IMG/VR virus record: IMGVR_UViG_3300021400_000885
Coordinates: 1 to 64,000 of that record
Source of the DNA: a virus
Taxonomy: Duplodnaviria > Caudoviricetes
Length of the DNA: 64,000 nucleotides
Strand: one strand, 5' to 3'
The notes beneath the pieces are model-generated. The model did not search any database and had not been told where the DNA came from. It worked only from the letters and a program-made list of their open reading frames with translations. The translations under genes and the position numbers were made by a program. Positions 11,135-24,699 of this stretch are shown one piece after another (position 1 is the stretch's first letter; every line of letters begins with the position of its first letter).

Positions 11135-12070
11135 TTAGAATTTGATTCCTCCAAATGCGTGTTTAAACTTTGTAGCTGCTTTTGCAAAGGCTGCTTTCTT
11201 TCTCATTGCAGTGGAAAAGGCATCTGGATGGGCAGATACATAAGATGCAAATTCCTGCACTCCCATATTATGTTTAGTAGCTGCTGCAGTAAATGTTCCT
11301 TTCTTTGATGGGTCAATATGAATAGAGCCTCCATGTGCTCTTGAACCTCCTCCAAAAGGACCTTGAAAGTACATTCCTAGTGGAAGCATATTGGCTATAT
11401 GATTTGATTGTACTGGTGCTTGTGGAATTCCCTGCTTGAAAAGGTTTCTTTCATAGTCCCTTCTTATTCTCAGTCCTGGATTTTTCTTATCATTGTATCC
11501 AGCATCCATATTAAGTATTACATTCTCCCAGTCTTTATTAGCTAAAGCTTCCTGAAGTTTTGGATGCTTGTTTCTATATGATGTTTCTCCTACATTATAA
11601 TGATAGGATAGTAATGCATCCCTTTGATTTTGTGATAAAGAATTCCAGTTTGGAGTATCTTTAGCAAGAATAGCAACTCTTTTAGCCAAGGAGTCTGCAA
11701 AGTATTTATCTGCTTGAGCTCTTGTTATTCCATTTGGAAAAAGCCTTTTAGCTTCTGGTCCAGTAAACCCATATCCAATTGTAGGTATACCATTGCCATC
11801 AAGATACCAATTAGGTCTAAATGCTTCAGTGTCTTTTATATACTTAATAATATCTTCACTTGGAGTGTATGTGTCTTTACTACCTCCATTAGCATAAGTA
11901 TATGAGACAGGTCTTCCAAAAGTATCAGTTGCTTCCTCAAGGGAAGTGTTAAAGTCAGCAAGCTGTGAGTCATATATATTCTTCATATCAGAAAGAGAAG
12001 TCACTCCGTTTCTCCTCATGATATTCATAAGCTGTGACTTTTGTGCAATTGTGAGATTATTCCAAGACAT
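11135..12070 (-). CDS. GH24 lysozyme fused to crAss-type small domains (likely virion cargo)
   Basis: TEAFRPNWYLDGNGIPTIGYG (E-x8-D-x5-T triad), DALLSYHYNVG, GLRIRR; C-terminal IHIDPSKKGTFT domain; TATATTTG element at 12091-12098. Confidence 0.85.
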   Translation of the reverse strand: MSWNNLTIAQKSQLMNIMRRNGVTSLSDMKNIYDSQLADFNTSLEEATDTFGRPVSYTYANGGSKDTYTPSEDIIKYIKDTEAFRPNWYLDGNGIPTIGYGFTGPEAKRLFPNGITRAQADKYFADSLAKRVAILAKDTPNWNSLSQNQRDALLSYHYNVGETSYRNKHPKLQEALANKDWENVILNMDAGYNDKKNPGLRIRRDYERNLFKQGIPQAPVQSNHIANMLPLGMYFQGPFGGGSRAHGGSIHIDPSKKGTFTAAATKHNMGVQEFASYVSAHPDAFSTAMRKKAAFAKAATKFKHAFGGIKF

Positions 12071-12115
12071 AATTGTGTGATTTATTGGCACAAATATACA
12101 CAATTATATAATATT

Positions 12116-12218
12116 AAAAAAGCAGGTGAGTTTCACAACTAACCTGCTTGCCACACTAATAATCATCAAAAACCTACATGTCAGAAAAGAATCTTTTGTT
12201 CGGCTTTTTCCGTAACAC
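12116..12218 (-). ncRNA. Candidate antisense small RNA (promoter - anti-start-codon segment - UGUGAA hairpin/terminator)
   Basis: TATATTTG at 12224-12231; body complementary to aataatcatcaaaaacctacATGTCAGAAAAG; 3' hairpin 12120-12149 with UGUGAA loop followed by a U-run. Confidence 0.6.
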
Positions 12219-12247
12219 CCATGCAAATATAGAGATAAATTTTTATA

Positions 12248-12335
12248 AAACAAAATAAGCACACTTCACAGCGTGCTTATTTCTAAAATCTTTAGCCCTC
12301 TCATTTCTATGAGAACACTTCAGTGCTATGGAAAA
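12248..12335 (-). ncRNA. Candidate antisense small RNA (same architecture)
   Basis: TATATTTG at 12341-12348; body complementary to ...tttctATGAGAACACTTCAG; 3' hairpin 12253-12282 with UGUGAA loop and U-rich tail. Confidence 0.6.
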
Positions 12336-12355
12336 CACTACAAATATAGTAATTA

Positions 12356-12826
12356 TTATTTAGAATACACAGCTTCAAATGTAACTTTTAACTCTTTTCT
12401 CTTCTCCTTATCTCCTTTCCAGAGCATTTCTGGGTTAATTAAAAAGTCTCCTTGAGATTCAACTTTTTCTCCATTTCTATTTGTATAGTACACTTTTGAA
12501 AGAACTTTTGCATCAACGAGTTGATTAATAGCATTATAGAATCCTGCTCTTGATATGCCAAGCTTTTCTATAATTTCTGCTCTTTTCCCCATAGATATAG
12601 ACACTTTTCCAGTATTGACATATGTCTCTTCCATTAAAGCGTGTAGTACTTTTATAGGGATTACTCCTTTTATATTATACATCCACTGCACATAGTTTAT
12701 AAACACAAAGTAGAAATTCTCATTATCAGAATTGTGTTTAAACACTTTTCTAATAGTGGTAACTCTGTCATTACCAAACTCATCTTTTACAGTAGTTTCT
12801 ACTGATTCTACATAACCTTTTGACAT
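12356..12826 (-). CDS. RepL-like winged-HTH protein
   Basis: LGISRAGFYNAINQL HTH and FLINPEMLWKG motif typical of RepL-like proteins; TATATTTG element at 12861-12868. Confidence 0.7.
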   Translation of the reverse strand: MSKGYVESVETTVKDEFGNDRVTTIRKVFKHNSDNENFYFVFINYVQWMYNIKGVIPIKVLHALMEETYVNTGKVSISMGKRAEIIEKLGISRAGFYNAINQLVDAKVLSKVYYTNRNGEKVESQGDFLINPEMLWKGDKEKRKELKVTFEAVYSK

Positions 12827-12908
12827 AATTATTCTAGTTTAAATATTGATTTGTCTTTTACAAATATACAAAAAATTCTTTAATATCTAAACAGAATGTT
12901 AAACGATA

Positions 12909-12967
12909 TTAGACTATGAGTCTAGTGTACTAGACTCCCAATCCAGTGTACTGGACACCCAGTCTAA
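12909..12967. promoter_or_regulatory. Tandem palindromic operator/iteron-like sites
   Basis: gagtctagt-gt-actagactc (12918-12937) and tccagt-gt-actgga (12942-12955), centres 21 bp apart, flanked by ttagact/agtctaa. Confidence 0.55.
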
Positions 12968-13069
12968 AGTTCAATGTTTTAGAATCTTTGTAGCTTATTG
13001 ATATATGTATAGTTATGGATAAACCTTAAAAAGCTTCCTTATCTTATCTAGTAATAGTTTTACCCACAA

Positions 13070-13250
13070 TAAATTTTTTGAAATTTTTTTGAGTTAGGGA
13101 AAGGAGAAATTTTTTTTTTAAAATTATTTGTGGGAGGGGGGACATAAAATAAAATTTATTTTTTTTTTGATTTGGGAGAGCAGGACATAATACACCCAAC
13201 ACCCCGGAGGGTGTAACCCCGTTGGGGTTATCCCCCCGTGTTGTTTGGTG
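13070..13250. other. Strand-switch region; candidate genome terminus/origin
   Basis: T-tracts followed by repeated tggga..ggacataa, GC-rich hairpins (taacccc-gtt-ggggtta); lies between the divergent late and early arms. Confidence 0.4.
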
Positions 13251-13462
13251 TTTGCCCTGTTCACTCTCTTTTGTCAGACTTTGGAATGAGAAGAGTAGAA
13301 CTCTTTGAAATGTTCTGGAAAGGTGCAGCGAGATGCAGTGCCCTCAATACATGAAGAAGTATTGTGACAAGTACGAACAGAGTAGGAGTGTTTGAAACCC
13401 TCAAACCATTCAGCATGGTGCTGACAGCCTGACCAGCTGTGAATTGGTCTGAGTATAGAATT

Positions 13463-13789
13463 ATGGCAGCAACAATGTCCAACAATTCTTCTTTCACTGG
13501 CAAGTTCATCAACAATGAGCGTCCTGCAATCACCTTTTTCTTTGCCCAGCATGGTGGGCACAGTGGCTCCCGCAAGGTAGTTACAAGTGATGGGGAAACT
13601 CGCATCATGTTCTCTTGCATGGATGGCACCGCTGTCTGGGCAAGTGAGAAAGCCACGGAGAAACTCCTCAACAAGACCCGTCCTGCAAAGGAACTTGTTG
13701 TTGGTGAGTGGCGCGATGATGAAACTGGAAAGACTGGGTTCACCGCTTATTATGAGGGTGGTGAGGAGATTGAAATCTCCTTTGAATAA
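13463..13789 (+). CDS. First early gene, hypothetical protein
   Basis: GC-richer ORF followed by a strong terminator; start taken at MAATM. Confidence 0.65.
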   Translation: MAATMSNNSSFTGKFINNERPAITFFFAQHGGHSGSRKVVTSDGETRIMFSCMDGTAVWASEKATEKLLNKTRPAKELVVGEWRDDETGKTGFTAYYEGGEEIEISFE

Positions 13790-13800
13790 GCCCTTGAAAG

Positions 13801-13833
13801 GACTCCTGATAGTGTTATCAGGAGTCTTTTTTT
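13801..13833 (+). terminator. Intrinsic terminator
   Basis: gactcctgata-gtgt-tatcaggagtc followed by a T-run. Confidence 0.8.
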
Positions 13834-14178
13834 AAGGCGAAATTTGGCTGTGAAATTGGGGAGCAAAAGTGTTGTAAGTATTTAATTTTCAACACTTTAA
13901 ATGTGCCAAAACAGGGCACAATGAACGCTCCCAATTTCACGCCAATTTCAACAAAAACCCAATTTCCGCTCCCCAACAAAAATGTAGCGGTTTTTTGGAT
14001 TCCTCAAAACACCTTGCCACATGGAATGGTACAAAGTAACACTACAAAACTTAGTGTCTTTAGAGACCTTTTCAACCAAAATTTTGGCACCAAATGCCAT
14101 CATAGCACTAAATTATGCCGAAGAAAAGTACAATAATACCGATTATTTGGCAATTCAAGCAGAAATCATAAACACTTA

Positions 14179-14526
14179 AACCTTTAGGCAGTATGAATGC
14201 GAAACAACAAGCCTTAAGAGACATGCGAAAAGCAGGGTTATCCACATCATTCTTCTATTATGAAGAAGCAATTTGTGGGAGAAGAGTGTGGGATGGGAGA
14301 TGCATGAATGGGGGCAAAAGAGCCAAAAAGAGTAACTAATCCTCTTAAATTGATTAGTAGGAACACCTATCCTTGGGGAAACCCTAAAATAAGGCGTGGT
14401 GAAGCACACGTTATAACGCAGGGCAATCAGCATTCCTACCATAAGCTGATACTCATAGTGGTCTGGATTACCAGCATTGGAGTATAAATTTCAACTACTG
14501 CTTGGGCAACCAAGTTTCAAAAGGTT
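14179..14526 (+). ncRNA. Candidate ~350-nt structured RNA
   Basis: End-closing helices aaccttt/aaaggtt, ggcagta/tactgct, gaatgc/gcattc; GNRA hairpins ggg-gaaa-ccc and cttgg-gcaa-ccaag; no plus-strand ORF. Confidence 0.55.
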
Positions 14527-14654
14527 CTTTTCGTCCTTTTCTTACACAAGTAAAAGGGCTTTTATATATCTATCACTCTCAGTAGTATAAATAGTGAGAG
14601 AAGGTTCAGCTACGAATACTAAGTAATAAAATTATAGAGCATTTATTGATGAAC

Positions 14655-14716
14655 TTTATATGTCTTGTTCATCTTTTTCACTTTAGTTCTGATGTGAATC
14701 ACAACTAAAGATTTTT
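14655..14716 (+). ncRNA. Candidate antisense small RNA with UGUGAA hairpin
   Basis: tgtcttgttCATctttttca (antisense to tgaaaaagATGAACAAGACA), then hairpin 14681-14710 with TGTGAA loop and T-run. Confidence 0.45.
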
Positions 14717-14740
14717 ATAAAATAGCACTTACATTATAGT

Positions 14741-14929
14741 ATGATTTCTGTTGATATTCTTCGCATCATAGAATTAGAAGAAGATGCTGAGTGTGGGCTT
14801 GAGGAGCTTTATACTCAATGGAGAGAAGAAGAACTTGCTTGTGAAAGAGATTTTTATAAGTGGTGGGACAATTGTGGTAAGTTCATCATTTCTGGAATAG
14901 CAGAGACTATTCAACAAAGAGTAAAATAA
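14741..14929 (+). CDS. Hypothetical acidic protein
   Basis: 62-aa ORF with AT-rich leader. Confidence 0.5.
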   Translation: MISVDILRIIELEEDAECGLEELYTQWREEELACERDFYKWWDNCGKFIISGIAETIQQRVK

Positions 14930-14946
14930 AATTACTCTTTTTTAAA

Positions 14947-15466
14947 CTCCTAATTACAACAAACCTTTACGTGGTTTAGGAGATAAGTATCCTTCGGGAG
15001 AAACTAATTGTTGTACGGCAGGCTTCTTGTCGTTAGGATAAACCAGCAATGGGATAAAGTGACTGTCTCTCAACAGGGAGATAGTTGCGCTATTTGATTT
15101 CATCAAGTAGTCTGTAAGAAAGCCAGATTATGCAAAGCAGTTCATGGTGTATCATCGGGCAGATGAGATAGTGAATTGCGGAGGGCTTGACCAGCTCTCC
15201 TTGAGGAGTAATCCTGACAAACATAACTGCTTAAGGACCAAAAAGGATTAGCCATCCATATAGTTCTTATGATGAAAGCTTTTAGACCTATGTCTTGGCG
15301 GACACAATTGAATTAGCCATTCAATTGATATCAGAAATGGTAGGTTTGTATAGTTAGTAAAGTGAAAGTCTTGGCGGATAAGTAGCATAACCGTGTTGAT
15401 GGGTAAACTCCTCAAAAGGGAGCATTCCATTCAAGCACAACCACACGGTTAGTCAGGTCATCTGTT
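14947..15466 (+). ncRNA. Candidate large ornate RNA (~520 nt; ROOL/GOLLD-like class)
   Basis: 5' pseudoknot (tacaacaa/ttgttgta), C(UUCG)G and GNRA loops, many helices, two gtc-ttggcg-ga hairpins; no ORF. Confidence 0.65.
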
Positions 15467-15509
15467 ATTTTAATTTATTATTCATGATGTATAATTTATT
15501 AATTTAGCA

Positions 15510-15830
15510 AAGAGTGTTGTGCACACTTGATAACAACAGAGTTATCCTTCTGTAATATGGAGGCATCATGCGCTCGCAAGGCAATTGATGAAGTGAAACA
15601 AGTATCCAAGTTCTAACTGGGGGCACCCAGCTAACCCGCAAGGAGTTCTGGAGAAAGGAGTATCTTATATAATCAAGTGTAGGAGTTGCGGAACTTGTTA
15701 ATCCGTCTCTGTGTTGCCTACCCCAAAAGGGTGTGTTCTAGTCAGGTAAACTGGTGAAAATGGCAATTATATGGGTCATGACTCAGCCCATATGCAAATT
15801 CTGAACGAAGTGAAATTTTTTCAGAGTTCA
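15510..15830 (+). ncRNA. Candidate ~300-nt structured RNA
   Basis: acacttgat/atcaagtgt long-range helix, crossing acagag/ctctgt pairing, GCAA/GUAA loops; no ORF. Confidence 0.55.
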
Positions 15831-15834
15831 AATT

Positions 15835-15918
15835 TACAACATTGTTTCGCAAAGCATATTGTTTATTTGTTTATGGTTAGGTAAATGGAGTAACTATTAT
15901 AGCTCCATTTACCTTTTA
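15835..15918 (+). ncRNA. Candidate antisense small RNA ending in a terminator
   Basis: aagCATattgtttatttgtttatgg followed by the 12-bp stem aggtaaatggag/ctccatttacct and Ts. Confidence 0.45.
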
Positions 15919-15950
15919 CTTAAAAAGAAATCAATTAAAACAGCCCTGAT

Positions 15951-16301
15951 ATGAAAAGATTTATTATTTCACTCCTTTGTGGAGTCATCTGTGTTCTTAG
16001 TGGTGCTAAGGACAGTCCTTGGAAAGAAATCCAAACAGTTATTCTTCCTCAAAGTGTAACTATCTATGAAGGTGTTACACGTTCTGGAAATGCTAAATAC
16101 TGGATTGAAATTGAGAACATCAAAGTCTCAGTTGCCCCTACAAATGTAGCTAAATTTCAAAGGGGAGAAACTAAGCTAGAGCTTGTAAAATGGCAGAATA
16201 TGGAAACTAAAAAGTTTAAATATTCTACAAGGCAGGTAAAAAGCTCAGGTTCATCCACAAGGAAAGAGGAAAAGAATATTGACTTGACCAGCCTCTTTTG
16301 A
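15951..16301 (+). CDS. Secreted/periplasmic hypothetical protein
   Basis: Signal peptide MKRFIISLLCGVICVLSGA; terminator at 16332-16367. Confidence 0.6.
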   Translation: MKRFIISLLCGVICVLSGAKDSPWKEIQTVILPQSVTIYEGVTRSGNAKYWIEIENIKVSVAPTNVAKFQRGETKLELVKWQNMETKKFKYSTRQVKSSGSSTRKEEKNIDLTSLF

Positions 16302-16381
16302 TAATGCTGCCTTAAATATTTATGCTAACACGAATCAGGATAGTCTTTTTGTCCTGATTCTTTTTTACAGTTGATTTACAT

Positions 16382-16792
16382 ATGGGGAATTTTGAATATT
16401 ATGGAGTATTTGTTGATAGGTCAACCAGAGAGAAAATACTCAAGCTTGTACAAGATAAAATACCTGAAGGATGGATTGCTTATGCAGAACACATAACTAT
16501 GTTGCATAGAACCCATAAAAATCATTATATTGAGAAATACTTAGCTGCTTTCCTTGGGGAGAGAATGTTCTTTAAGATTATTGGATGGGGAATAAGTGAC
16601 AGAGCTTTTGCTGTTATTACTGATTGTCCTAGTGAAAATAAAGTATCACACATGACAATTGCAGTTGCTCCAGGTGCAAAACCTGTTGAGTCTAACAATA
16701 TTACAGATTGGCACTATGAGCAAATAGGTGATATTTTTCACGGTTATCTTAGTGTACAACCTCATGTAAAGTATAAAAATTATGAGAAATAA
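16382..16792 (+). CDS. 2H phosphoesterase family protein
   Basis: Two HxT motifs (HITM, HMTI), KPVESN; adjacent to the tRNA cluster. Confidence 0.7.
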   Translation: MGNFEYYGVFVDRSTREKILKLVQDKIPEGWIAYAEHITMLHRTHKNHYIEKYLAAFLGERMFFKIIGWGISDRAFAVITDCPSENKVSHMTIAVAPGAKPVESNNITDWHYEQIGDIFHGYLSVQPHVKYKNYEK

Positions 16793-16817
16793 GTAGTACA
16801 ATTTAACTTATTTTATC

Positions 16818-16825
16818 TATATTTG
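16818..16825 (+). promoter_or_regulatory. Bacteroidetes -7 promoter element for the tRNA/sRNA cluster
   Basis: TATATTTG ending 4 nt before the 16830 stem. Confidence 0.6.
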
Positions 16826-16829
16826 CATA

Positions 16830-16915
16830 GCCCCAATTACAGAGTTTCTGTCAATAATTACGTAGTTAGAAGGCCATAAGAATAAGTTAATGTATTTCAA
16901 TCAAGTAATTGGGGC
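16830..16915 (+). ncRNA. Candidate panhandle antisense RNA
   Basis: 11-bp stem gccccaattac/gtaattggggc enclosing ggcCATaagaataagttaatg; ends 5 nt before tRNA-Gln. Confidence 0.55.
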
Positions 16916-16920
16916 ATTAT

Positions 16921-16992
16921 TGAGGTATGGTGTAATTGGCAACACTAGGGATTTTGGTTCCCTCATTTGAGGTTCGAGTCCTCATACCTCAA
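16921..16992 (+). tRNA. tRNA-Gln(TTG)
   Basis: Cloverleaf; anticodon arm aggga-ttTTGgt-tccct; GGTTCGAGTCC T-arm. Confidence 0.92.
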
Positions 16993-17006
16993 CAACATTA
17001 ACTTTG

Positions 17007-17060
17007 GGGATACTCAAATTATGTTAAACATGATACTGAATAAAACCATTTGGGTATCCC
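17007..17060 (+). ncRNA. Candidate panhandle antisense RNA
   Basis: gggatactcaaat/atttgggtatccc stem enclosing aaaCATgatactgaataaaacc. Confidence 0.45.
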
Positions 17061-17097
17061 TTTAATTAGAACATTAACTATTTAAACACATAAAGCC

Positions 17098-17259
17098 ATG
17101 CTAACAATCAAAATGAAACAAGGAACAACACTCCTAGCTGCATCTTCCACTCTTGAGGAAGTACAGAGAAAAGCACTGAGTTATCAGTGCAAGAATGCTA
17201 AACAACCTTATGTTAGAAAAGACATATTTATTTCAATAAACGGAAAAGAATCATTTTAA
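17098..17259 (+). CDS. Small hypothetical protein (53 aa)
   Basis: MLTIKMKQG... ORF with A-rich leader; below the ORF-track cutoff. Confidence 0.5.
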   Translation: MLTIKMKQGTTLLAASSTLEEVQRKALSYQCKNAKQPYVRKDIFISINGKESF

Positions 17260-17260
17260 T

Positions 17261-17557
17261 ATGGATGCAATATTTATCATATTTTGCTATGCTTTTATGT
17301 TTGCTTGCTTGGCAATTCCAATATACAAACTCATAGACAGACGTAACAAGCAAAAGCAAATTGAAGAATCTTCAAAAGAGATAATCAAGACCACTTACAT
17401 ATACACAGATGGGAAATGTGAATATGAGCTTTATCTTAAACCTGCATCAAAAGCAGTATTTTATGTAAGAAATAAAGTAAGTAATGGCTATTCCTACAAA
17501 GTGTATATTCAAGGAGACCTAAAGAATACAGTCTTAAAAGCTTATGGACTGATATAA
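17261..17557 (+). CDS. Membrane-anchored hypothetical protein
   Basis: N-terminal TM segment. Confidence 0.55.
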   Translation: MDAIFIIFCYAFMFACLAIPIYKLIDRRNKQKQIEESSKEIIKTTYIYTDGKCEYELYLKPASKAVFYVRNKVSNGYSYKVYIQGDLKNTVLKAYGLI

Positions 17558-17564
17558 TAATCCT

Positions 17565-17639
17565 GCCCTCCTAGTATAAAGGTTATTACAGATGATTTGT
17601 AATCTTCAAATAGCTGTTCAACTCAGCTGGGGGGCTCCA
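17565..17639 (+). tRNA. tRNA-Thr(TGT)
   Basis: Cloverleaf; anticodon loop ttTGTaa; encoded CCA. Confidence 0.85.
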
Positions 17640-17709
17640 AGCAGTTTAAATGGATATAATAAAGGTTGTTTATGTTTATTTTTCGTTTCAGGGCACATTT
17701 AAACTGCTT
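17639..17709 (+). ncRNA. Panhandle RNA filling the Thr-Ile spacer
   Basis: Perfect 14-bp stem aagcagtttaaatg/catttaaactgctt enclosing a U-rich loop (no CAT). Confidence 0.5.
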
Positions 17710-17713
17710 ATTT

Positions 17714-17787
17714 AGTGGCGAAGCTTAATGAGTATAAGCACCAGTCTTATAAACTGGAGATATTGGGTGCAATTCCCAAGGCCACTA
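17714..17787 (+). tRNA. tRNA-Ile(TAT)
   Basis: Anticodon arm ccagt-ctTATaa-actgg; atypical T-loop (GTGCAAT). Confidence 0.8.
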
Positions 17788-17789
17788 CA

Positions 17790-17873
17790 GGTTACTGTAC
17801 AACATGCTGTAACCCATGAAGTTTTACTTTTTGTACATTAAGTGTACATACTGTTGTGAAATATTATGTACAC
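17790..17873 (+). ncRNA. Candidate antisense RNA with UGUGAA hairpin filling the Ile-Arg spacer
   Basis: aaccCATgaagttttactttttg, then gtgtacata..TGTGAA..tatgtacac hairpin. Confidence 0.55.
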
Positions 17874-17877
17874 ACAC

Positions 17878-17949
17878 TCCTCCATAGTTCAAGGGATAGA
17901 ACAGCAGTCTTCTAAACTGTCAATATGTGTTCGAGTCACATTGGAGGAA
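17878..17949 (+). tRNA. tRNA-Arg(TCT)
   Basis: Cloverleaf; anticodon loop ctTCTaa. Confidence 0.9.
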
Positions 17950-17980
17950 CTAATAATTAACAATTAAAAACATTAACATT

Positions 17981-18349
17981 ATGGCACTTAAAGTAAGTAT
18001 TACCTCAACAAAGTTTACTACAATTGGTAAGAATGTAGTATGTACAATTGCTACAACTATAAAGAATGACAACCCTTTGCCTTCAGAACCAGCTTATCCA
18101 TTCCTCATAAAAGTATTTACAGGTGAGGCTAAATACAATGAAGAAGATAAGTATGATTACAAGAAAGGTAGAGCAATTGCCCTTGCCAAAGCTGAAAGAG
18201 CATCTTACAAATACTGGAAGGAATTTCTTAAGAAATTGATGGATAAATACACAAGAGGGATTGCTCTTTGTACTCCATTGTATGGCAAATGCAGTGAAGT
18301 CATTGCACACAATACATTATTTATTGATGATTTAGTATCAAATAAATAA
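17981..18349 (+). CDS. Conserved phage hypothetical protein
   Basis: GEAKYNEEDKYDYKKGRAIA motif of a type common in phage proteins. Confidence 0.6.
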   Translation: MALKVSITSTKFTTIGKNVVCTIATTIKNDNPLPSEPAYPFLIKVFTGEAKYNEEDKYDYKKGRAIALAKAERASYKYWKEFLKKLMDKYTRGIALCTPLYGKCSEVIAHNTLFIDDLVSNK

Positions 18350-18358
18350 TTAGCTCAT

Positions 18359-18433
18359 CGGGGTGTAGTTCAGTTGGTAGAATGCCTGGTTTGGGACCAG
18401 GAGGTTGCGCATGTTCGAGTCATGTCACCCCGA
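18359..18433 (+). tRNA. tRNA-Pro(TGG)
   Basis: Cloverleaf; cctgg-ttTGGga-ccagg. Confidence 0.92.
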
Positions 18434-18434
18434 C

Positions 18435-18686
18435 ACTTAGTTTTTATCCATAACTAAGTTATAAAAACCTTGTTTCATTCGGACTAATCTTGCTGTGAAG
18501 TAAGAAAAAGTCAAAAGTACTCTTACATTAAACTAATTGTTAGTTGGTAGCTCCATGCGGTTTAAAGACAATGTAAGAGTACTTTTTTATTATGTCATTT
18601 CCACAAGGGAAGAGGATAATCCTCATTAAACTATATTTTCTTGCTTGCGCTATCTAATCTAAGGTTTCAGTTCACCCTCTTCCCTT
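18435..18686 (+). ncRNA. Three tandem candidate antisense RNAs behind tRNA-Pro
   Basis: Unit 1: CAT at 18449 plus TGTGAA hairpin 18482-18512. Unit 2: 17-bp stem 18513-18586 enclosing CAT at 18554. Unit 3: 11-bp stem 18605-18686 enclosing CAT at 18624. Confidence 0.55.
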
Positions 18687-18876
18687 TCTTTTTAATATTC
18701 ATATCTAACGAAATATAAAACACTAATCAAAAAAATTATAAAAATACACTGAAAAGGAAGTAATCATAATCTATAAAAATAGATGCATCCATTTCTTTGC
18801 TGTAAGTGATAAAATTGTACAAAGAGAAAAACGAGCCTTTTAAGGCTAAAAAAGTTAAATTTTAAAAAGTTTTAGT

Positions 18877-19344
18877 ATGGAAACAAAAATAAAAATAGAT
18901 GAATTCGCTAAAAGGGTAAAAATGGAGTTTGAGGGATTCAGGGAAATCTTAAAAAGAAAAGGAATTGACTTTCAACCAACTGAAATGGAGTGGAAAGACT
19001 TTACTGCAAGATTTTTATGGATTACAAAAGACTTTATCGAACTAAAAGATTCCATAAAAATATTAGAGCAAAAAGAGCCCTTTATACAAAAAACAAAAAT
19101 GGAAGAAGTTGAAATAACTGGTGAAGTAAAAATGACTGGCTGGGTAGCAAGAGATGCAAATGGATTACTTCTACTCCATTTCAGGAAACCAGTAAGGGAA
19201 GATGCCCTTCATATATTTACACCATATTGGTATTCAGGAAAATGGGGAGCAATCAAAATAAGAAACAAAAATGCATTCAAAGCCTTACGATGGGAAGACG
19301 AACCTGTAAAAGTAAAGGTAACAATAAGAGCGGAGGAAAAATAA
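18877..19344 (+). CDS. Hypothetical protein
   Basis: C-terminal WVARD...L.WEDEPVKV module of a type seen in Bacteroidales phages. Confidence 0.6.
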   Translation: METKIKIDEFAKRVKMEFEGFREILKRKGIDFQPTEMEWKDFTARFLWITKDFIELKDSIKILEQKEPFIQKTKMEEVEITGEVKMTGWVARDANGLLLLHFRKPVREDALHIFTPYWYSGKWGAIKIRNKNAFKALRWEDEPVKVKVTIRAEEK

Positions 19345-19448
19345 AATACAAACCAAGAAGACAATTTAAGATGAATTGCAACCCTCGAATATTCAGCACA
19401 CATTATTTTTATATAAAATAAAGAGCAATAAAATAAAAAGAATACAAT

Positions 19449-19688
19449 ATGGATAACAAACTAATAATTCTATTAGATAATTGCAAAGATGCAGTTATTA
19501 AAAAGGACATAGTTGCTCTTATAAGTTCTGCTAAATCTCTTGGTTTAGATGGCAATTCAAGGTCTCCATTATTAGAGTTCATCAGAAATCTTATAATAGA
19601 AGATATTAAGAACTTTATAGTTCAAAATAAAAAGGATTCCATTAGAATCAGTAGGAAGAATGCATATCATCAAGATACATTCGACTGA
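19449..19688 (+). CDS. Hypothetical protein
   Basis: ORF with A-rich leader. Confidence 0.5.
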   Translation: MDNKLIILLDNCKDAVIKKDIVALISSAKSLGLDGNSRSPLLEFIRNLIIEDIKNFIVQNKKDSIRISRKNAYHQDTFD

Positions 19689-19825
19689 TACTCTTTAAAG
19701 GATGGAGAGTTATTTAGAAATGGATTTAAAGTAACTTTCGATTCTATCAGTAAACTTTATATAGCATATAAAAGAATACATAATATTGATTAATTAACAA
19801 AATAAAACTATTACAACAAATGTTT

Positions 19826-20309
19826 AAAATATAAACCTCCCTAATTCGGTGAAAGCTAAGTAAATGTGGTGTAAACACTTGGTAAATTCCTCTCAGCTGC
19901 GTACTGGAGTAATCATGGATGAAGCCACATTTATATGTCAATACCGAGCCAATGTTATTAACAAGTATGGGATTTATGTATCCTCCTTATTACTAGTGTA
20001 TAAGCAGAGAAAACTTGTTATAGACAGTGTGTAGAGACGAGATACAGGAGGAACCTAAGTTGAAGTGGGTTATAGATGGAAATGAATTGTCTTTCCTTGT
20101 AACAGCCCAACTCATGAGACTTCAATATGGTTAAGATACAGTCCAGACCACAAATATTATAAAGACCCGAAATAATAGGAACATAAAAGGGATGTTACGG
20201 AATGACTGCAATCCTATTGTGCTGTAGGTCATTTTTAGTCTTTATAATAGTAGTGAAAACTATAGTGGTAAAAGTTGCCTTACTCTAAGGAAACTTAGAG
20301 ATATGGTAA
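19826..20309 (+). ncRNA. Group I intron-like ribozyme core without host gene or homing endonuclease
   Basis: P aattcggtgaaag, Q aataccgagc, R gtagagacga, S aagatacagtcc; P3 cctcc/ggagg, P4 tcggt/accga, P8 and P9 helices. Confidence 0.8.
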
Positions 20310-20356
20310 TAGAATGATTATTTTCATATTTTTAATTACTTTAAAACAGAATAGAT

Positions 20357-22285
20357 ATGACACAAGAAGATAAACAACTATTACTTAAAGACCTTTGTGC
20401 AAGAATTCCATATTACACTTTTGTGCAATTAAATCCCGGTGCTTACAATAAGCCAGAAACATGCATACTGACTGGGGTTCATGGAGAAAAAATTCATTTG
20501 AATGTTGATTCTGACCCTTTCAGAATTGACCATATAAAACCTTATCTCCGTTCAATGTCTTCCATGACTGAAGAAGAGTATATCCACTATTGTGAAACCC
20601 GTGAGTGGAAGTATGTTGATGATGACCACTATGAATATTTTGATACTCTCAAAACCTTTGATTGGCTTCTTGAACATCATTTTGACTATCGTGGCTTAAT
20701 TACTATGGATTTAGCTATTGAAGCAAAAGAAGGAATGTATAAATAATATAGATATTAGTTTTACTTGTTTAAATTTTTAAATTTAGTTAGTTATGGAAAA
20801 AATGTATAAAGTTTATAATATTGATATTTCATTTACGGAGTACAGTGTTGATGATATAATTGTTGGCGCAATAGATGAGGAAGATTTGGTTAAGCATCTT
20901 GAAGAAATTGCGTTGGATAATGACTTTAAAGATATAATTGAAAACATAGAGTTGATGAAATATTCATACGAACATCGTATAATTGAAGTACCTAATTGTT
21001 ACACTGATAAACCATATACTGTTCTTAGTAGAACTTTTTATTATGAATAAGATTTTGGCATAGAATGTACATGGCATAGTTATATAACGGAAAAAGAGAT
21101 ATGATTACAGAAGACTATTGCTCTTTTGAAACAGCAAAACTCTTGAAAGAAAAGGGGTTTGATGTATATGTGCGTTCTTTTTACGAGAAAGATAAATATA
21201 GGACAAAAGAAGAGTTTAGCACAAATAACGCACTGTGGAACTACAATATTTCAAGTTTTCGCTATTCAGCCCCAACTCTTCAAATGGCAATGAAATGGTT
21301 AAGGGAAGTGCAGCATTGTGTAATATGTATAACCCCACTGACATTTTATTGTGGAGAAATAGTTTCAAAATGGGGATATTGTATCTGGGCTGATGATAAT
21401 ACAGAAGTAGATGAAGAAAGTTCTCCAAGACTTGAATCTTACGAAGAAGCTTGTGAGTCTGCAATTAAGTATTGTCTTGAAAATTTAATTTAATATGAAA
21501 TGGTATCAGCTTAAATACAACTACAATGTTGAAGAATGGTGGCGTCATAATGGAATTTTTGACAGAGAACAAGCAAGTGGAATACCATATATGGCAGGTG
21601 ATAACTATCTCCAAAAGACTGATGAATGGTGGGAATCACTTTCAAATGAAGCAAAATTGGAGATTTATAATGAATTTTTTAACGAATGCTAATTTAATTT
21701 AATCATGGATTTGAATAAAATTAAATACAATCTTAAATGGTTTTTCATTAAAACAAATCTTTTCAAGCACCATTTTAATGTAGAAGGATTTGTTTATATG
21801 GATACATTTAGAAATCCTGTACATGATACTACTAAAGAAGTAAAATGGCTTGGAACTGTTGATGTTCATTGTCGTTACAAAGACATGAATAAAAAAGCTA
21901 TTGAAGCATTTGGTAATATGTACCCACGATATAGAGGATATATTAATTTATATTAAAAAGATTAATTATGTTGATAGCGTTAATTTTAACAGTTGGTTGT
22001 ATAGCCCTTCTCTTAATAGGAGCTGTAATTTCTTCTTGGGCAGGAATGGAAATACAAGATGATGGTCCAGATATCAAGAATATAATAATGTTTCTAGTTG
22101 GGACAGGAATACTTACTTTTGCTTGTTTCTGTATATATAAAGCAAGTAATTATTATCACGAAAAAGAAAGTCCTAAAACGGAAATTACCACTTCTGTTCC
22201 AGCTCAAATTGATACTATTATTACTATAAGAAATAGTGTTCCTGATACTGCTTATATCTACAAGTTTAATCTTACTGAAAAATAA
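20357..22285 (+). CDS. Run of six small accessory ORFs (20357-20746, 20793-21050, 21101-21493, 21495-21692, 21705-21956, 21968-22285)
   Basis: Tightly packed co-oriented ORFs; families (LLKDLCARIPY; MITEDYCSFETAKLLKEKGF) typical of Prevotella/Bacteroides phages; the last has 2 TM segments. Confidence 0.65.
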
Positions 22286-22430
22286 GTATGACACAAGCAG
22301 AGAAAGAAAGGCTAAAAGATTTACTTTATCAAGCAAAATTTATTACTGATAAAGAAAATGAAGACCCATTTGTTGGTATATATTTGACAGACCTTATTGA
22401 TTTGTTAGATGATTACAAAAATGAGAAAAT

Positions 22431-24377
22431 ATGACTGATAAAGAAAAAGCAAGAGCCTATGATGAGGCTCTGGAACGAGCAAGGAAAAGAATAATGGTAG
22501 AACCGCAAGACCATACTGATAAAATACTAAAAGACATCTTTCCGCAACTCGCAGAGAGTGAGGATGAGAGGATAAGGAAGTTTCTCATAGACATATTGAG
22601 TCACGGCACTTGGCGAAAAGAATGGCCATTTGGACCAAACGAAGTCGTTGCCTACCTTGAAAAGCAGAAAGATAATCAATATTTCATTGGTTATGCTAAT
22701 GGGTATTCAGATGGACAATTAAATCCAAAGCAGAAAGAGCCTAACTACACCAAGCGTAATGAATTGTTTGATAAATGCGTAGAGAACTGTGACCCGAAGG
22801 TAATGAAAGAAGTATCTGACAATGTTGATAAGATGTTAGAACCTAAAATAGCATTTGGAGACTGGGGAGATAAAGAAAAGAAAGAAGCTATTAGCACTTG
22901 TCTTAAATATATGAGATTTATCAAGAAAATAACAAATCAAGAATATGATGATTTGACTGAATGGCTTAATGATAATCTTGTATCTAATGTATTATTAAAG
23001 AAAAAGCAGAAAGAGCATCAGAAAAAATCTGATGCTCAAGAAAAAGCTCTTGGACGGGATTTGACTTTTCCGCAAGACAAAGATAAGAATTTGGATGAAA
23101 TTGCACAAGACTATGTTGAAAGGGTGAAGGAGTATAATCCAGAGCCTACTTGGAACTTGATGCAAACTGCTGTATGCTATGGTTATCATTGTTGTGAGCA
23201 GAAAGAGCAGAAGCAAGAGTGGAAACCACAGCCAGAGTCTTTGGAAGCATTAATGTATGCAATAGAGGGCAAGTGGGATATGATATTGCCTACAAGTTAT
23301 CTATCTCGCAGACTGGAAGACCTTTATGAGGGGCTGGTTAATACTTTTAATATTGACGAATCGTTTCTGGCTGAATTGCCAAAAGCAGCTTCTCTTGCTT
23401 ACACTGCGGAGGACATAGAGGAACTGAAGGAATTAAAACGTAAAATTGAAGCATCAATGGAGCAGAAGCAAGTACCAATTTCGTGCAGTCACGAAAATGG
23501 TACACCAGCAGAGAGTAAAGCCACAATAAATGGTGAGCCTATTCAAACTGAGAATCAATCTGTAGACATTCCATTAGCGGTGTGGAGTGAAAAATATATT
23601 GCTGATGTCTTTGAAAAGGTTGGTCTTGCTAAGATTGTAAGAGAACAAGGGAATGATGCTCTTACCAATGCCATTCAGTCTGCTATGATTGAATTAAGTA
23701 AGGTAGAAAACACAGAGTGGAACGAGGAAGATAAGACTACAATGAATGACTTAATCTCCCTTCTTTGGATTTTACAAGGTTCTACTAATCTTAGAGAAGG
23801 AACGGCAAGTAAATATACCCATTGGCTTAAATCTCTTCCAGAAAGATTCAATCTCCAACCAAAAATTGAGTGGAATGAGGAAGATGAGAAGCCATCAATA
23901 TTCCCTCCTGGCCTTGGTGAAGTACACTGGAATCCTATTCCGTCCGCAAAGAAGGAATTAATGGAGAAGGCTGCGGAGAAACTATCCAAAGAAGAATATG
24001 TAAAAAAGTTCAAGGCTCTTTGCGAGGCCTACGAGATTAAACTTCCTAATCGTGAATATGATATCTACGGGTTATGTGAGGACTTGCATAAACTTTTTGG
24101 AGATATTCAGAATCCGGTTGAATGGAGCGATGAGGATGAGAATATGAGGAACTTAATAATTGAGACTCTTGATGACAACTCACACTATTTTCCGTTCAAG
24201 GAAACCAAAAAGAAGATGATGGACTGGCTCAAATCCCTCCGTCCTCAATCTCATTGGAAACCCAGCGAGGAACAGATGACTAATTTACTTAGGGCAGAAG
24301 GAAGATTAAGAATAGAAGGAGAGGATGTCCTTGCAAGTAAGTTGGCTGAAATTTACGAACAACTGAAGAAATTGTAA
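22431..24377 (+). CDS. Mosaic repeat protein (W-S/N-E-E-D modules)
   Basis: ESEDERIRK, repeated EKQK linkers, WSEKY/WNEEDK/WNEEDE/WSDEDE, WKPQPE/WKPSEE. Confidence 0.7.
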   Translation: MTDKEKARAYDEALERARKRIMVEPQDHTDKILKDIFPQLAESEDERIRKFLIDILSHGTWRKEWPFGPNEVVAYLEKQKDNQYFIGYANGYSDGQLNPKQKEPNYTKRNELFDKCVENCDPKVMKEVSDNVDKMLEPKIAFGDWGDKEKKEAISTCLKYMRFIKKITNQEYDDLTEWLNDNLVSNVLLKKKQKEHQKKSDAQEKALGRDLTFPQDKDKNLDEIAQDYVERVKEYNPEPTWNLMQTAVCYGYHCCEQKEQKQEWKPQPESLEALMYAIEGKWDMILPTSYLSRRLEDLYEGLVNTFNIDESFLAELPKAASLAYTAEDIEELKELKRKIEASMEQKQVPISCSHENGTPAESKATINGEPIQTENQSVDIPLAVWSEKYIADVFEKVGLAKIVREQGNDALTNAIQSAMIELSKVENTEWNEEDKTTMNDLISLLWILQGSTNLREGTASKYTHWLKSLPERFNLQPKIEWNEEDEKPSIFPPGLGEVHWNPIPSAKKELMEKAAEKLSKEEYVKKFKALCEAYEIKLPNREYDIYGLCEDLHKLFGDIQNPVEWSDEDENMRNLIIETLDDNSHYFPFKETKKKMMDWLKSLRPQSHWKPSEEQMTNLLRAEGRLRIEGEDVLASKLAEIYEQLKKL

Positions 24378-24384
24378 AACCAAT

Positions 24385-24451
24385 AGGGTGTGGAAAGAGG
24401 TTTGGGCAACATCGCAATAGGTTTATTTAACATTACTCAAGTACACACCCT
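24385..24451 (+). ncRNA. Candidate panhandle antisense RNA
   Basis: agggtgtg/cacaccct stem enclosing ggcaaCATcgcaataggtttatttaa, followed by Ts. Confidence 0.45.
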
Positions 24452-24464
24452 TTTATTGATTTAT

Positions 24465-24626
24465 ATGGAAGATTACGAAATTATAGGATGGCCTGAAATC
24501 CAATATTTCATGGACATTGAAGGATTTGATGATAACGCTACACTCATAGAGGAAAACGATGCTATGGGTATTGATAGCAGTACCTATTTAGTCAGTAAAG
24601 ATTGGCTGAAGTCTTTAGAAGAATAA
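24465..24626 (+). CDS. Small hypothetical protein (MEDYEIIGWPEIQ...)
   Basis: Start moved to the ATG downstream of the RNA element. Confidence 0.55.
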   Translation: MEDYEIIGWPEIQYFMDIEGFDDNATLIEENDAMGIDSSTYLVSKDWLKSLEE

Positions 24627-24637
24627 ATAAAATAACG

Positions 24638-24699
24638 GGGTGTAGAAAGTAAGTTACCACCATTCAAGATTAAGTGATAGCCGAACCTACACCCTTTTT
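24638..24699 (+). ncRNA. Candidate panhandle antisense RNA
   Basis: gggtgtag/ctacaccc stem plus T-run, enclosing accacCATtcaagattaagt. Confidence 0.45.

Follow-up and report, generated by a model that had tools for sequence, protein, structure and literature searches.

The small RNAs most closely comparable with those described here are encoded by the Bacteroidales themselves. FopS, a multicopy RNA whose CAU-containing seed pairs at start codons, blocks translation there; its single-stranded part is bound by RbpB, and one copy has been noted in a phage (PMC11697453). Several Bacteroidales FopS-like genes end in a GUGA-loop hairpin. The published probes for GibS and MasB contain the same loop motif as the phage units reported below (PMC11697453 supplement), and the GibS probe has an exact match in B. 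thetaiotaomicron. Phages also use RNA against CRISPR, in the form of Racrs and viral sgRNAs (10.64898/2026.06.01.729453).

The window analysed here, a stretch of 64,000 nucleotides, belongs to a crAss-like phage of the Steigviridae with a genome of 104 kb. Few base-pairing sRNAs have, to our knowledge, been described for lytic phages, and none from crAss-like phages was found in the literature searched. The window contains two classes of small unit, hairpin-ended (class A, n=5) and panhandle (class B), with fold z-scores of -1.8 to -4.6; an Rfam search returned no family for any of them. A sequence-only reading had taken them as guides displaying the reverse complement of translation starts, in a candidate silencing system with plausible targets among host defence genes. 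Its two scaffolds are confirmed, hairpins and panhandles both being rare in shuffles, and its listed units are real, save that one 14-bp panhandle was missed; the design, rather than a new kind of system, is the host's known Hfq-independent sRNA plan carried by a phage.

The class A hairpin units

Class A units run from a promoter or tRNA end, through a variable region of ∼35–65 nt, to a GUGA-tetraloop terminator hairpin. On the (-) strand, A1 (12112–12219) comprises a variable region, the hairpin (12120–12149) and a U tail, and is preceded by a Bacteroidetes -7 promoter box (TAnnTTTG) read from the sequence at 12224–12231 (-), a placement that recurs in relatives and in host FopS-like genes. 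A2 (12247–12337, (-)), again a variable region with a GUGA hairpin (12252–12283), has its -7 box at 12341–12348 (-), immediately past the stop codon of a RepL-like gene (12356–12826, (-); Pfam PF05732, E=1e-5), which in relatives is the landmark immediately upstream of the A2-A1 tandem. The other three lie on the (+) strand. A3 (14625–14716, approximate 5′ end) places a U-rich region before its hairpin (14681–14710), and no consensus promoter was seen for it; A4 (17788–17873) fills the spacer between a tRNA at 17714–17787 and tRNA-Arg (17878–17950), and A5 (18435–18512) begins at the 3′ end of tRNA-Pro (18359–18434). A further proposed guide unit, A6 (15790–15920, (+)), consists of a U-rich stretch and a plain hairpin (15879–15914) that has no GUGA loop; it lies directly 3′ of a GOLLD-like RNA and is probably the terminator of that RNA, its membership of class A being doubtful.

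All five UGUGAA hairpins fold as the sequence-only reading described. Between 11.5 and 28.5 kb there are five such hairpins at or below -11 kcal/mol and none in 40/40 shuffles, and the 104-kb genome holds one other, a weak one inside a gene. The hairpin has a 4-bp apical stem and the GUGA tetraloop, in most cases together with a pyrimidine mismatch; its apical pairs covary and the GNGA loop is invariant, with lower stems that vary from unit to unit. The scaffold is present in every Steigviridae record examined (rumen relatives, DAC15, cr112_1, tikkala, crAss001, 25 Bcn phages and eight further genomes, related phages that do not count as independent samples), including unannotated units in crAss001 (MH675552, about 1830–1921) and DAC15 (MT074136, about 2684–2758). 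The predicted combination of conserved scaffold and variable front end is borne out for the hairpin class across Steigviridae. A1 is 99.2% identical in strain L012, where its flanking genes are only 94.7–94.8% identical, making the unit more conserved than its neighbours; the counterpart of A2 in the same strain has its front end replaced and its hairpin nearly unchanged. In the relative L003 the 19-nt core of A4 reappears within another unit, joined to a different hairpin. At the level of sequence, these comparisons show front ends exchanged between lineages on a constant scaffold.

The class B panhandles

Intergenic inverted repeats with arms of at least 11 bp number five (one being tRNA-Gln itself), compared with 0–1 in six shuffles. 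The panhandles all lie on the (+) strand. A -7 promoter box at 16818–16825 (+), read from the sequence, precedes B1 and tRNA-Gln (16921–16993); B1 (16830–16915, 11-bp arms) ends 5 nt upstream of this tRNA and B2 (17007–17060) lies downstream of it. B7 (17639–17709), the panhandle missed earlier, has 14-bp arms and a loop without CAT, and occupies the spacer between tRNA-Thr (17565–17639) and the tRNA at 17714–17787. B3 (18513–18586, 17-bp arms) and B4 (18605–18686, 11-bp arms) are each followed by a U tail. B5 (24385–24451) has a syntenic copy in L003/L014 whose arms resemble its own while the loop is unrelated, and B6 (24637–24695), with a U tail, has 9-bp arms akin to those of B5.

The class B panhandles are genuine structures of modular make-up; as a class they are not anti-start guides, contrary to what had been proposed: their loops contain 15 CAT where 16.8 are expected, and held-out panhandles, with CAT in 6/12 against 7.6 expected, carry no anti-start signal. 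They are probably end-protected small RNAs freed from the same transcripts as class A. A Y RNA reading was rejected, the genome having no TROVE gene and the panhandles no Rfam Y RNA match, as was a MITE/REP-like origin, since the arms differ among units except for the partial likeness of B5 and B6. Repeated panhandles do occur in hosts, unlike the B units with their differing arms.

CAU excess and candidate host targets

CAT is found in 12/13 window units against 8.1 expected (p=0.006). An anti-start score across the window gives p=0.006 for class A and p=0.10 for class B; the signal belongs to the hairpin class alone. Among 35 class A guides, drawn from related phages and not independent samples, CAT is the top trinucleotide (z=4.4) and ATG is not enriched (z=0.8). 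Held-out class A guides give the same picture (CAT in 14/18, 8.0 expected, p=0.002), compared with p=0.29 for control sequence upstream of host terminators, and with CAT held fixed the flanks of class A guides look like anti-start sites (p=0.017). The CAU excess in class A is strand-specific. It is not the invariant CAU that had been predicted: 25/35 guides contain it and 10/35 do not, and a 12-unit gut-phage subset (6/12) shows no enrichment (p=0.35).

Searched against all 104 kb of the phage, no guide has a complement beyond chance expectation, in line with the lack of extended matches to phage gene starts reported for the window. In the known host of DAC15, B. thetaiotaomicron, DAC15 guide 1 favours start windows (z=3.1, with 5.4 for a FopS control), and six of its top 30 matches fall at starts, as for FopS, against 0–3 for shuffles. 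Its best match (score 85) forms 22 contiguous pairs across the start of a signal-peptide protein of >500 aa, a score reached by 1/25 shuffles in 2 Mb; the full scan covered 2.0 of 6.3 Mb. Candidate start sites for the DAC15 unit in the tRNA-Gln/Glu spacer are one at about 4,404,100 of NC_004663 (minus strand) and an OmpA-like one near 1,865,555. A preference for host starts is seen for this guide, with little or none for DAC15 guide 2 and the crAss001 guide. DAC15 guide 2 has no match in the host of DAC15, and the pairing of the crAss001 guide with a sugar transporter start in Bacteroides sp. 51, which is not a known host, is not conserved and was taken as chance.

For the window phage itself, a host search by BLAST of the whole region matched only tRNAs. 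A1 complements the start of a GH172 gene in the metagenome-assembled genome G541 at 32/38 positions across codons 1–12 (score 45), with its CAT opposite codon 5 and not the AUG. We treat this as a weak lead rather than a target: it is absent from close orthologues, other units are unmatched in G541, and A3 reached 44 by chance at a site away from a start. The peptides earlier read from implied target starts are unreliable, several meeting stop codons within a few codons. An A1 18-mer gave 12 unrelated matches in JGI metagenomes. The exact 19-nt A4 core gave 18 scattered matches in GTDB, none in Prevotella or Bacteroides, and with two mismatches it matched 251 Bacteroidaceae genomes about as often as a reversed control, and not at starts. 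When A3 and A5/B3/B4 were compared by BLAST with 136 genomes, 3/24 inspected matches were antisense at starts and three same-sense. Long complements of the guides were absent from samples of 221–251 Bacteroides or Bacteroidaceae genomes, from GTDB and from JGI metagenomes, and the best scores lie close to the chance level of large searches. Start-site matches are weak, none being significant individually, and mostly involve exported (signal-peptide) proteins; no recognisable defence gene is among the guide matches, and the proposed defence-gene targets are not supported.

Interpretation and comparison with known systems

We favour, with moderate confidence, a reading of class A as phage-encoded trans-acting sRNAs on the host sRNA plan, with swappable seeds and with class B separate. 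Judging by position, host sigma-A RNA polymerase would transcribe A1 and A2, each from its TAnnTTTG promoter, whereas A4, A5 and the crAss001 and DAC15 units would be excised from tRNA operons by tRNA-processing nucleases. The GUGA hairpin, its structure backed by covariation, presumably ends and stabilises the RNA. The 35–65 nt 5′ region may then pair through short imperfect seeds (∼12–25 nt, with wobble and bulges) with host mRNA starts, and pairing at several of them would block initiation in the manner of FopS and GibS, as the statistical signal suggests. The likeliest targets may be surface and other exported proteins whose starts are A-rich, and their silencing would serve superinfection exclusion or resource diversion, not anti-defence. 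More tentative is the wider proposal of a modular, reprogrammable Steigviridae sRNA arsenal in which a host-derived GUGA scaffold, seeds swapped between lineages, tandem promoters and tRNA-punctuated processing would silence chosen host mRNAs (surface or defence) in lytic infection, with the panhandles as a second, unexplained class. If class A units do silence host genes, they would add an RNA layer to the dominant gut phages' control of host surfaces and persistence, and their natural scaffold could be put to use for programmable knock-down in Bacteroidales. The hosts of crAss001 and DAC15 are cultured, and B. thetaiotaomicron is genetically tractable with sRNA tools; the claim is therefore open to immediate testing.

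The units could instead be decoys, whose U-rich strands and host-type hairpin soak up host RNA-binding proteins (the RRM proteins RbpA/B/C, ribosomal S1, nucleases), their anti-start look reflecting FopS/GibS-like descent. Many class A guides are indeed plain U/G-rich runs without CAU, one crAss001-type unit and one L022 unit have a 9-nt motif in common with the FopS consensus, RbpB is known to bind the single-stranded part of FopS (PMC11697453), and a strong target was not found. A decoy, however, has no need of lineage-specific, strain-conserved front ends swapped wholesale, or of a CAU excess confined to one strand and flanked by start-like sequence, and we consider this account unlikely. 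The loops themselves invite a purely cis-acting explanation, UGUGAA being the joint commonest among ordinary B. thetaiotaomicron terminators and CGUGAG also common there: the units would punctuate phage transcripts as terminators of host type, as insulators and as processing stems (for the panhandles, RNase III-like), with filler in front. The exact fit of panhandles into tRNA spacers, with no anti-start signal, agrees with this. Assembled contigs of long-insert RNA libraries cover two large RNAs and not the units, a result uninformative for RNAs <110 nt. Such a role is the best account of A6 and possibly of class B. As an explanation of everything it is quite improbable, given that A1, A2 and their counterparts are ORF-free and in tandem, each between its own promoter and terminator, that the gene downstream has a separate promoter, and that the front ends are non-random and more strongly conserved than protein genes.

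Least probable, in our view, is a single arsenal of one-to-one guides against host defence genes that takes in the panhandles. The prevalence of CAT among window units, their position in the early/accessory region and the known deployment of phage RNA against CRISPR (10.64898/2026.06.01.729453) speak for it; the held-out panhandles, the lack of any recognisable defence gene among the matches, the predominance of signal-peptide proteins at start sites and the failure to find long one-to-one complements speak against it.

CRISPR and TIGR systems provide only partial likenesses to our favoured reading. Like Racrs and vsgRNAs (10.64898/2026.06.01.729453), the units would be small phage RNAs with their own promoter and terminator, a co-opted host scaffold and a short guide; Racrs and vsgRNAs, however, load into Cas proteins and need a repeat or tracr. 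The phage units have neither, their scaffold is another one, and no Cas gene is present. In phage, TIGR arrays and CRISPR mini-arrays also join variable guides to a scaffold that repeats, but the units here are dispersed and separately promoted; they lack edge repeats and box C/D motifs, and no partner nuclease gene was found. We rejected a CRISPR, TIGR or Racr identity, as lower stems and arms differ between units and no Rfam CRISPR or tracr match was obtained. Class B recalls Y RNA/Ro60 in that its 5′ and 3′ ends form a long stem enclosing a loop that varies; crAss001-like phages encode a TROVE protein, unlike the phage analysed here.

Closer are the trans sRNAs of Bacteroidales that block start codons (the GibS, MasB, FopS and BatR type). 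GibS and MasB of B. thetaiotaomicron share the YUGUGAAR-capped hairpin with the phage units, the apical 12 nt of MasB recurring unchanged in the crAss001 and DAC15 units; their seeds have no sequence homology with the phage seeds, and they are host-encoded, single-copy RNAs with tested targets, GibS being longer. Like FopS, A1, A2 and their relatives have a sigma-A promoter, a single-stranded 5′ region and a 3′ intrinsic terminator, and many FopS-like host genes show the same order of promoter, seed and GUGA hairpin. A4 and A5, beginning at tRNA ends, and A3, without a clear promoter, depart from this layout, tRNA operons are apparently the source of some units, and they are carried by a crAss-like phage that is lytic. 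A single, highly conserved seed is common to the FopS paralogues (51/301 Bacteroidales genomes), and its R1/R1′ consensus is absent from all window guides; in the phage each unit has a seed of its own. Class A would on this comparison be a phage-borne, variable-seed variant of the Bacteroidales FopS/GibS-type sRNAs.

Genomic setting and structure of the units

The 103,909 bp virus record, of which the window covers bases 1-64000, encodes a portal and terminase 44–55% identical to those of Steigviridae (for example crAss001, DAC15 and IAS virus), and its closest relatives come from gut-type metagenomes as contigs of uncultured viruses. The units are located in an accessory region around the divergence point, with the endolysin on one side and replication genes on the other, which also holds five tRNAs, a GOLLD-like large RNA (14950-15789, +; Rfam RF02032, 76 bits, E=1.8e-18 over 15391-15789, below the gathering score) and a second large intergenic RNA (19830-20300, +) with group I intron-like core motifs, for which we saw no flanking exons and obtained no Rfam match. 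A tRNA with the anticodon UAU (Ile), unusual among bacteria, was detected at 17714-17787 (+) by Rfam and missed by ARAGORN, while a tRNA-like gene with an 8-nt anticodon loop is called in a related lineage (contigs L003, rc 13065-13148, L004, L014 and L016). The 2H-phosphoesterase-like protein at 16382-16792 (+; weak tRNA_lig_CPD match, E=3.5e-4) could act in RNA 3'-end processing; in many relatives its gene has stayed next to the tRNA region.

An unbiased scan of the whole genome returned six UGUGAA-capped hairpins, namely the five picked out by the sequence-only reading and one weak, intragenic example, and none arose in 40 shuffles of the unit region. The five belong to the class A units A1 (12112..12219, -), A2 (12247..12337, -), A3 (14625..14716, +), A4 (17788..17873, +) and A5 (18435..18512, +), each with a variable front end, or guide. 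The class B panhandles of the same reading also proved to be real structures, to which we add B7 (17639-17709). A Bacteroidetes -7 box precedes A1, A2 and the panhandle B1, whereas the 3' end of a tRNA is the start point of B7, A4 and A5; B1, B7 and A4 stop 4–5 nt ahead of the next tRNA. It therefore seems likely that tRNA processing would release B1, B7, A4 and A5.

In two studies, contigs derived from RNA span one early gene, the GOLLD-like RNA (three gut metatranscriptome runs) and, with good coverage, the 19830-20300 RNA (19.8-20.2 kb), divergent homologues of which occur in the same samples. The small units fall outside this coverage which, since libraries of that type lose RNAs so short, is evidence neither way.

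A conserved, modular class across Steigviridae

In relatives located via the RepL-like gene, its stop codon is immediately followed by one promoter-variable region-hairpin unit or by two in tandem, with front ends that differ lineage by lineage. In a close strain (L012) A1 is kept at 99.2% while genes are only 94.7% identical, and A2 has a different front end on a nearly unchanged hairpin; two other relatives have units in common at 97.7%, their repL genes being 66.5% identical. A 19-nt core of A4 recurs in another lineage, where both the unit and its hairpin are different. With tRNA-spacer units in DAC15, DAC17, cr112_1, tikkala, crAss001 and 25 Bcn phages, and one to three class A units in each of eight further genomes, class A is family-wide. 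In a set of 27 distinct hairpins the loop conforms to GNGA and the apical pairs show covariation, with a pyrimidine mismatch in most cases at position five. These comparisons establish the promoter- or tRNA-delimited hairpin units as a class that is both conserved and modular. Among the panhandles, the syntenic partner of B5 in relatives is related to it in the arms but not in the loop, and others are present in corresponding regions of relatives.

Several relatives have, in their early region, a separate conserved family of CGUGAG-capped hairpin units with a common upstream motif (L003 rc 11150-11241; L012 rc 11330-11427; L022 rc 11210-11303), which the window lacks.

Possible complementarity to translation starts, and putative targets

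CAT is present in 12 of the 13 window units (8.1 expected), and taken together the units score high on a host start-site matrix (p=0.004), a signal due to the hairpin class (p=0.006) and not the panhandles (p=0.10). As a class, the hairpin units carry this anti-start signal: among 18 held-out guides from other phages, selected on structure alone, 14 contain CAT against 8.0 expected (p=0.002), although the p-values of these cross-phage comparisons, those below included, are somewhat optimistic because related phages are counted as independent. A control set of 33 host sequences lying 5' of ordinary terminators showed no excess (p=0.29). In all 35 class A guides pooled, no trinucleotide is more enriched than CAT (z=4.4), and ATG shows no enrichment (z=0.8); with CAT held fixed, flanks match start sites better than shuffled flanks in class A (p=0.017) but not in class B (p=0.36). 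The last result, and CAT in 6 of 12 held-out panhandle loops (7.6 expected), give no support to panhandles as anti-start guides. Nor is CAU invariant, as had been proposed, since 12 additional gut Steigviridae guides, many of them U/G-rich runs, contain it in 6 cases against 5.1 expected, which is no enrichment.

Complement searches of the units in the phage's own genome gave no match above chance. We searched for the host of the window phage and did not find it; DAC15 guides were run on the genome of the identified DAC15 host, B. thetaiotaomicron. DAC15 guide 1 favours start windows there (z=3.1; 5.4 for the positive control, the Bacteroides sRNA FopS), with 6 of its 30 top matches in 2 Mb at starts (0–3 in shuffles). 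Its best match, 22 contiguous pairs across the start of a signal-peptide protein, has a score reached by 0/300 shuffles on 1527 starts and by 1/25 in 2 Mb overall; further matches include an OmpA-like gene. Target searches with DAC15 guide 2 and the crAss001 guides found little. A1 also gives z=3.1 on the DAC15 host, a non-host for the window phage, and in one Bacteroidaceae MAG it pairs, at 32 of 38 positions, with codons 1-12 of a GH172 gene whose product is secreted; scores of this kind arise by chance in searches of comparable size. This match is absent from GH172 orthologues, and the remaining window units have no match in that MAG. For A5 and for A3, one antisense match each fell on an exported protein's start, at chance level. 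No match pointed to the defence genes once suggested as targets. We infer that the hairpin units are expressed and pair with host mRNAs, with a bias to exported proteins; the targets are putative, and the hypothesis is directly testable in two model phages.

Likeness to host repressor sRNAs

FopS RNAs, each made up of a sigma-A promoter, a single-stranded CAU-bearing seed and a terminator, act on SusC-like genes by blocking translation at their start codons (PMC11697453); BatR likewise acts at initiation regions (PMC10861873). The FopS 5' consensus occurs in 51 of 301 genomes of our Bacteroidales sample and reaches at least one family besides Bacteroidaceae (G138), a range wider than published. 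Other Bacteroidales phages (L025, represented by 27 near-identical IMG/VR contigs, L040, L073 and L096) carry promoter-seed-GUGA hairpin units whose seed, the complement of ATG AAA, is near that of FopS. In B. thetaiotaomicron (G465 C1 1,850,300-1,864,332, -) there are three tandem pairs of UGUGAA/UGCGAA hairpins, one directly 3' of an OmpA-like gene, a host counterpart of the phage tandem arrangement.

We found no report of the hairpin units in the literature searched. Their YUGUGAAR loop is common to the northern probes of GibS and MasB (PMC11697453 supplement). GUGA-type loops are also frequent in ordinary host terminators, and the loop therefore marks a host-type terminator, not necessarily a dedicated protein site. 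Many FopS-like genes from Bacteroidales genomes have the promoter spacing of the phage units together with a GUGA loop; the FopS seed is missing from the phage units, which are not FopS members. The class A architecture is that of host repressor sRNAs.
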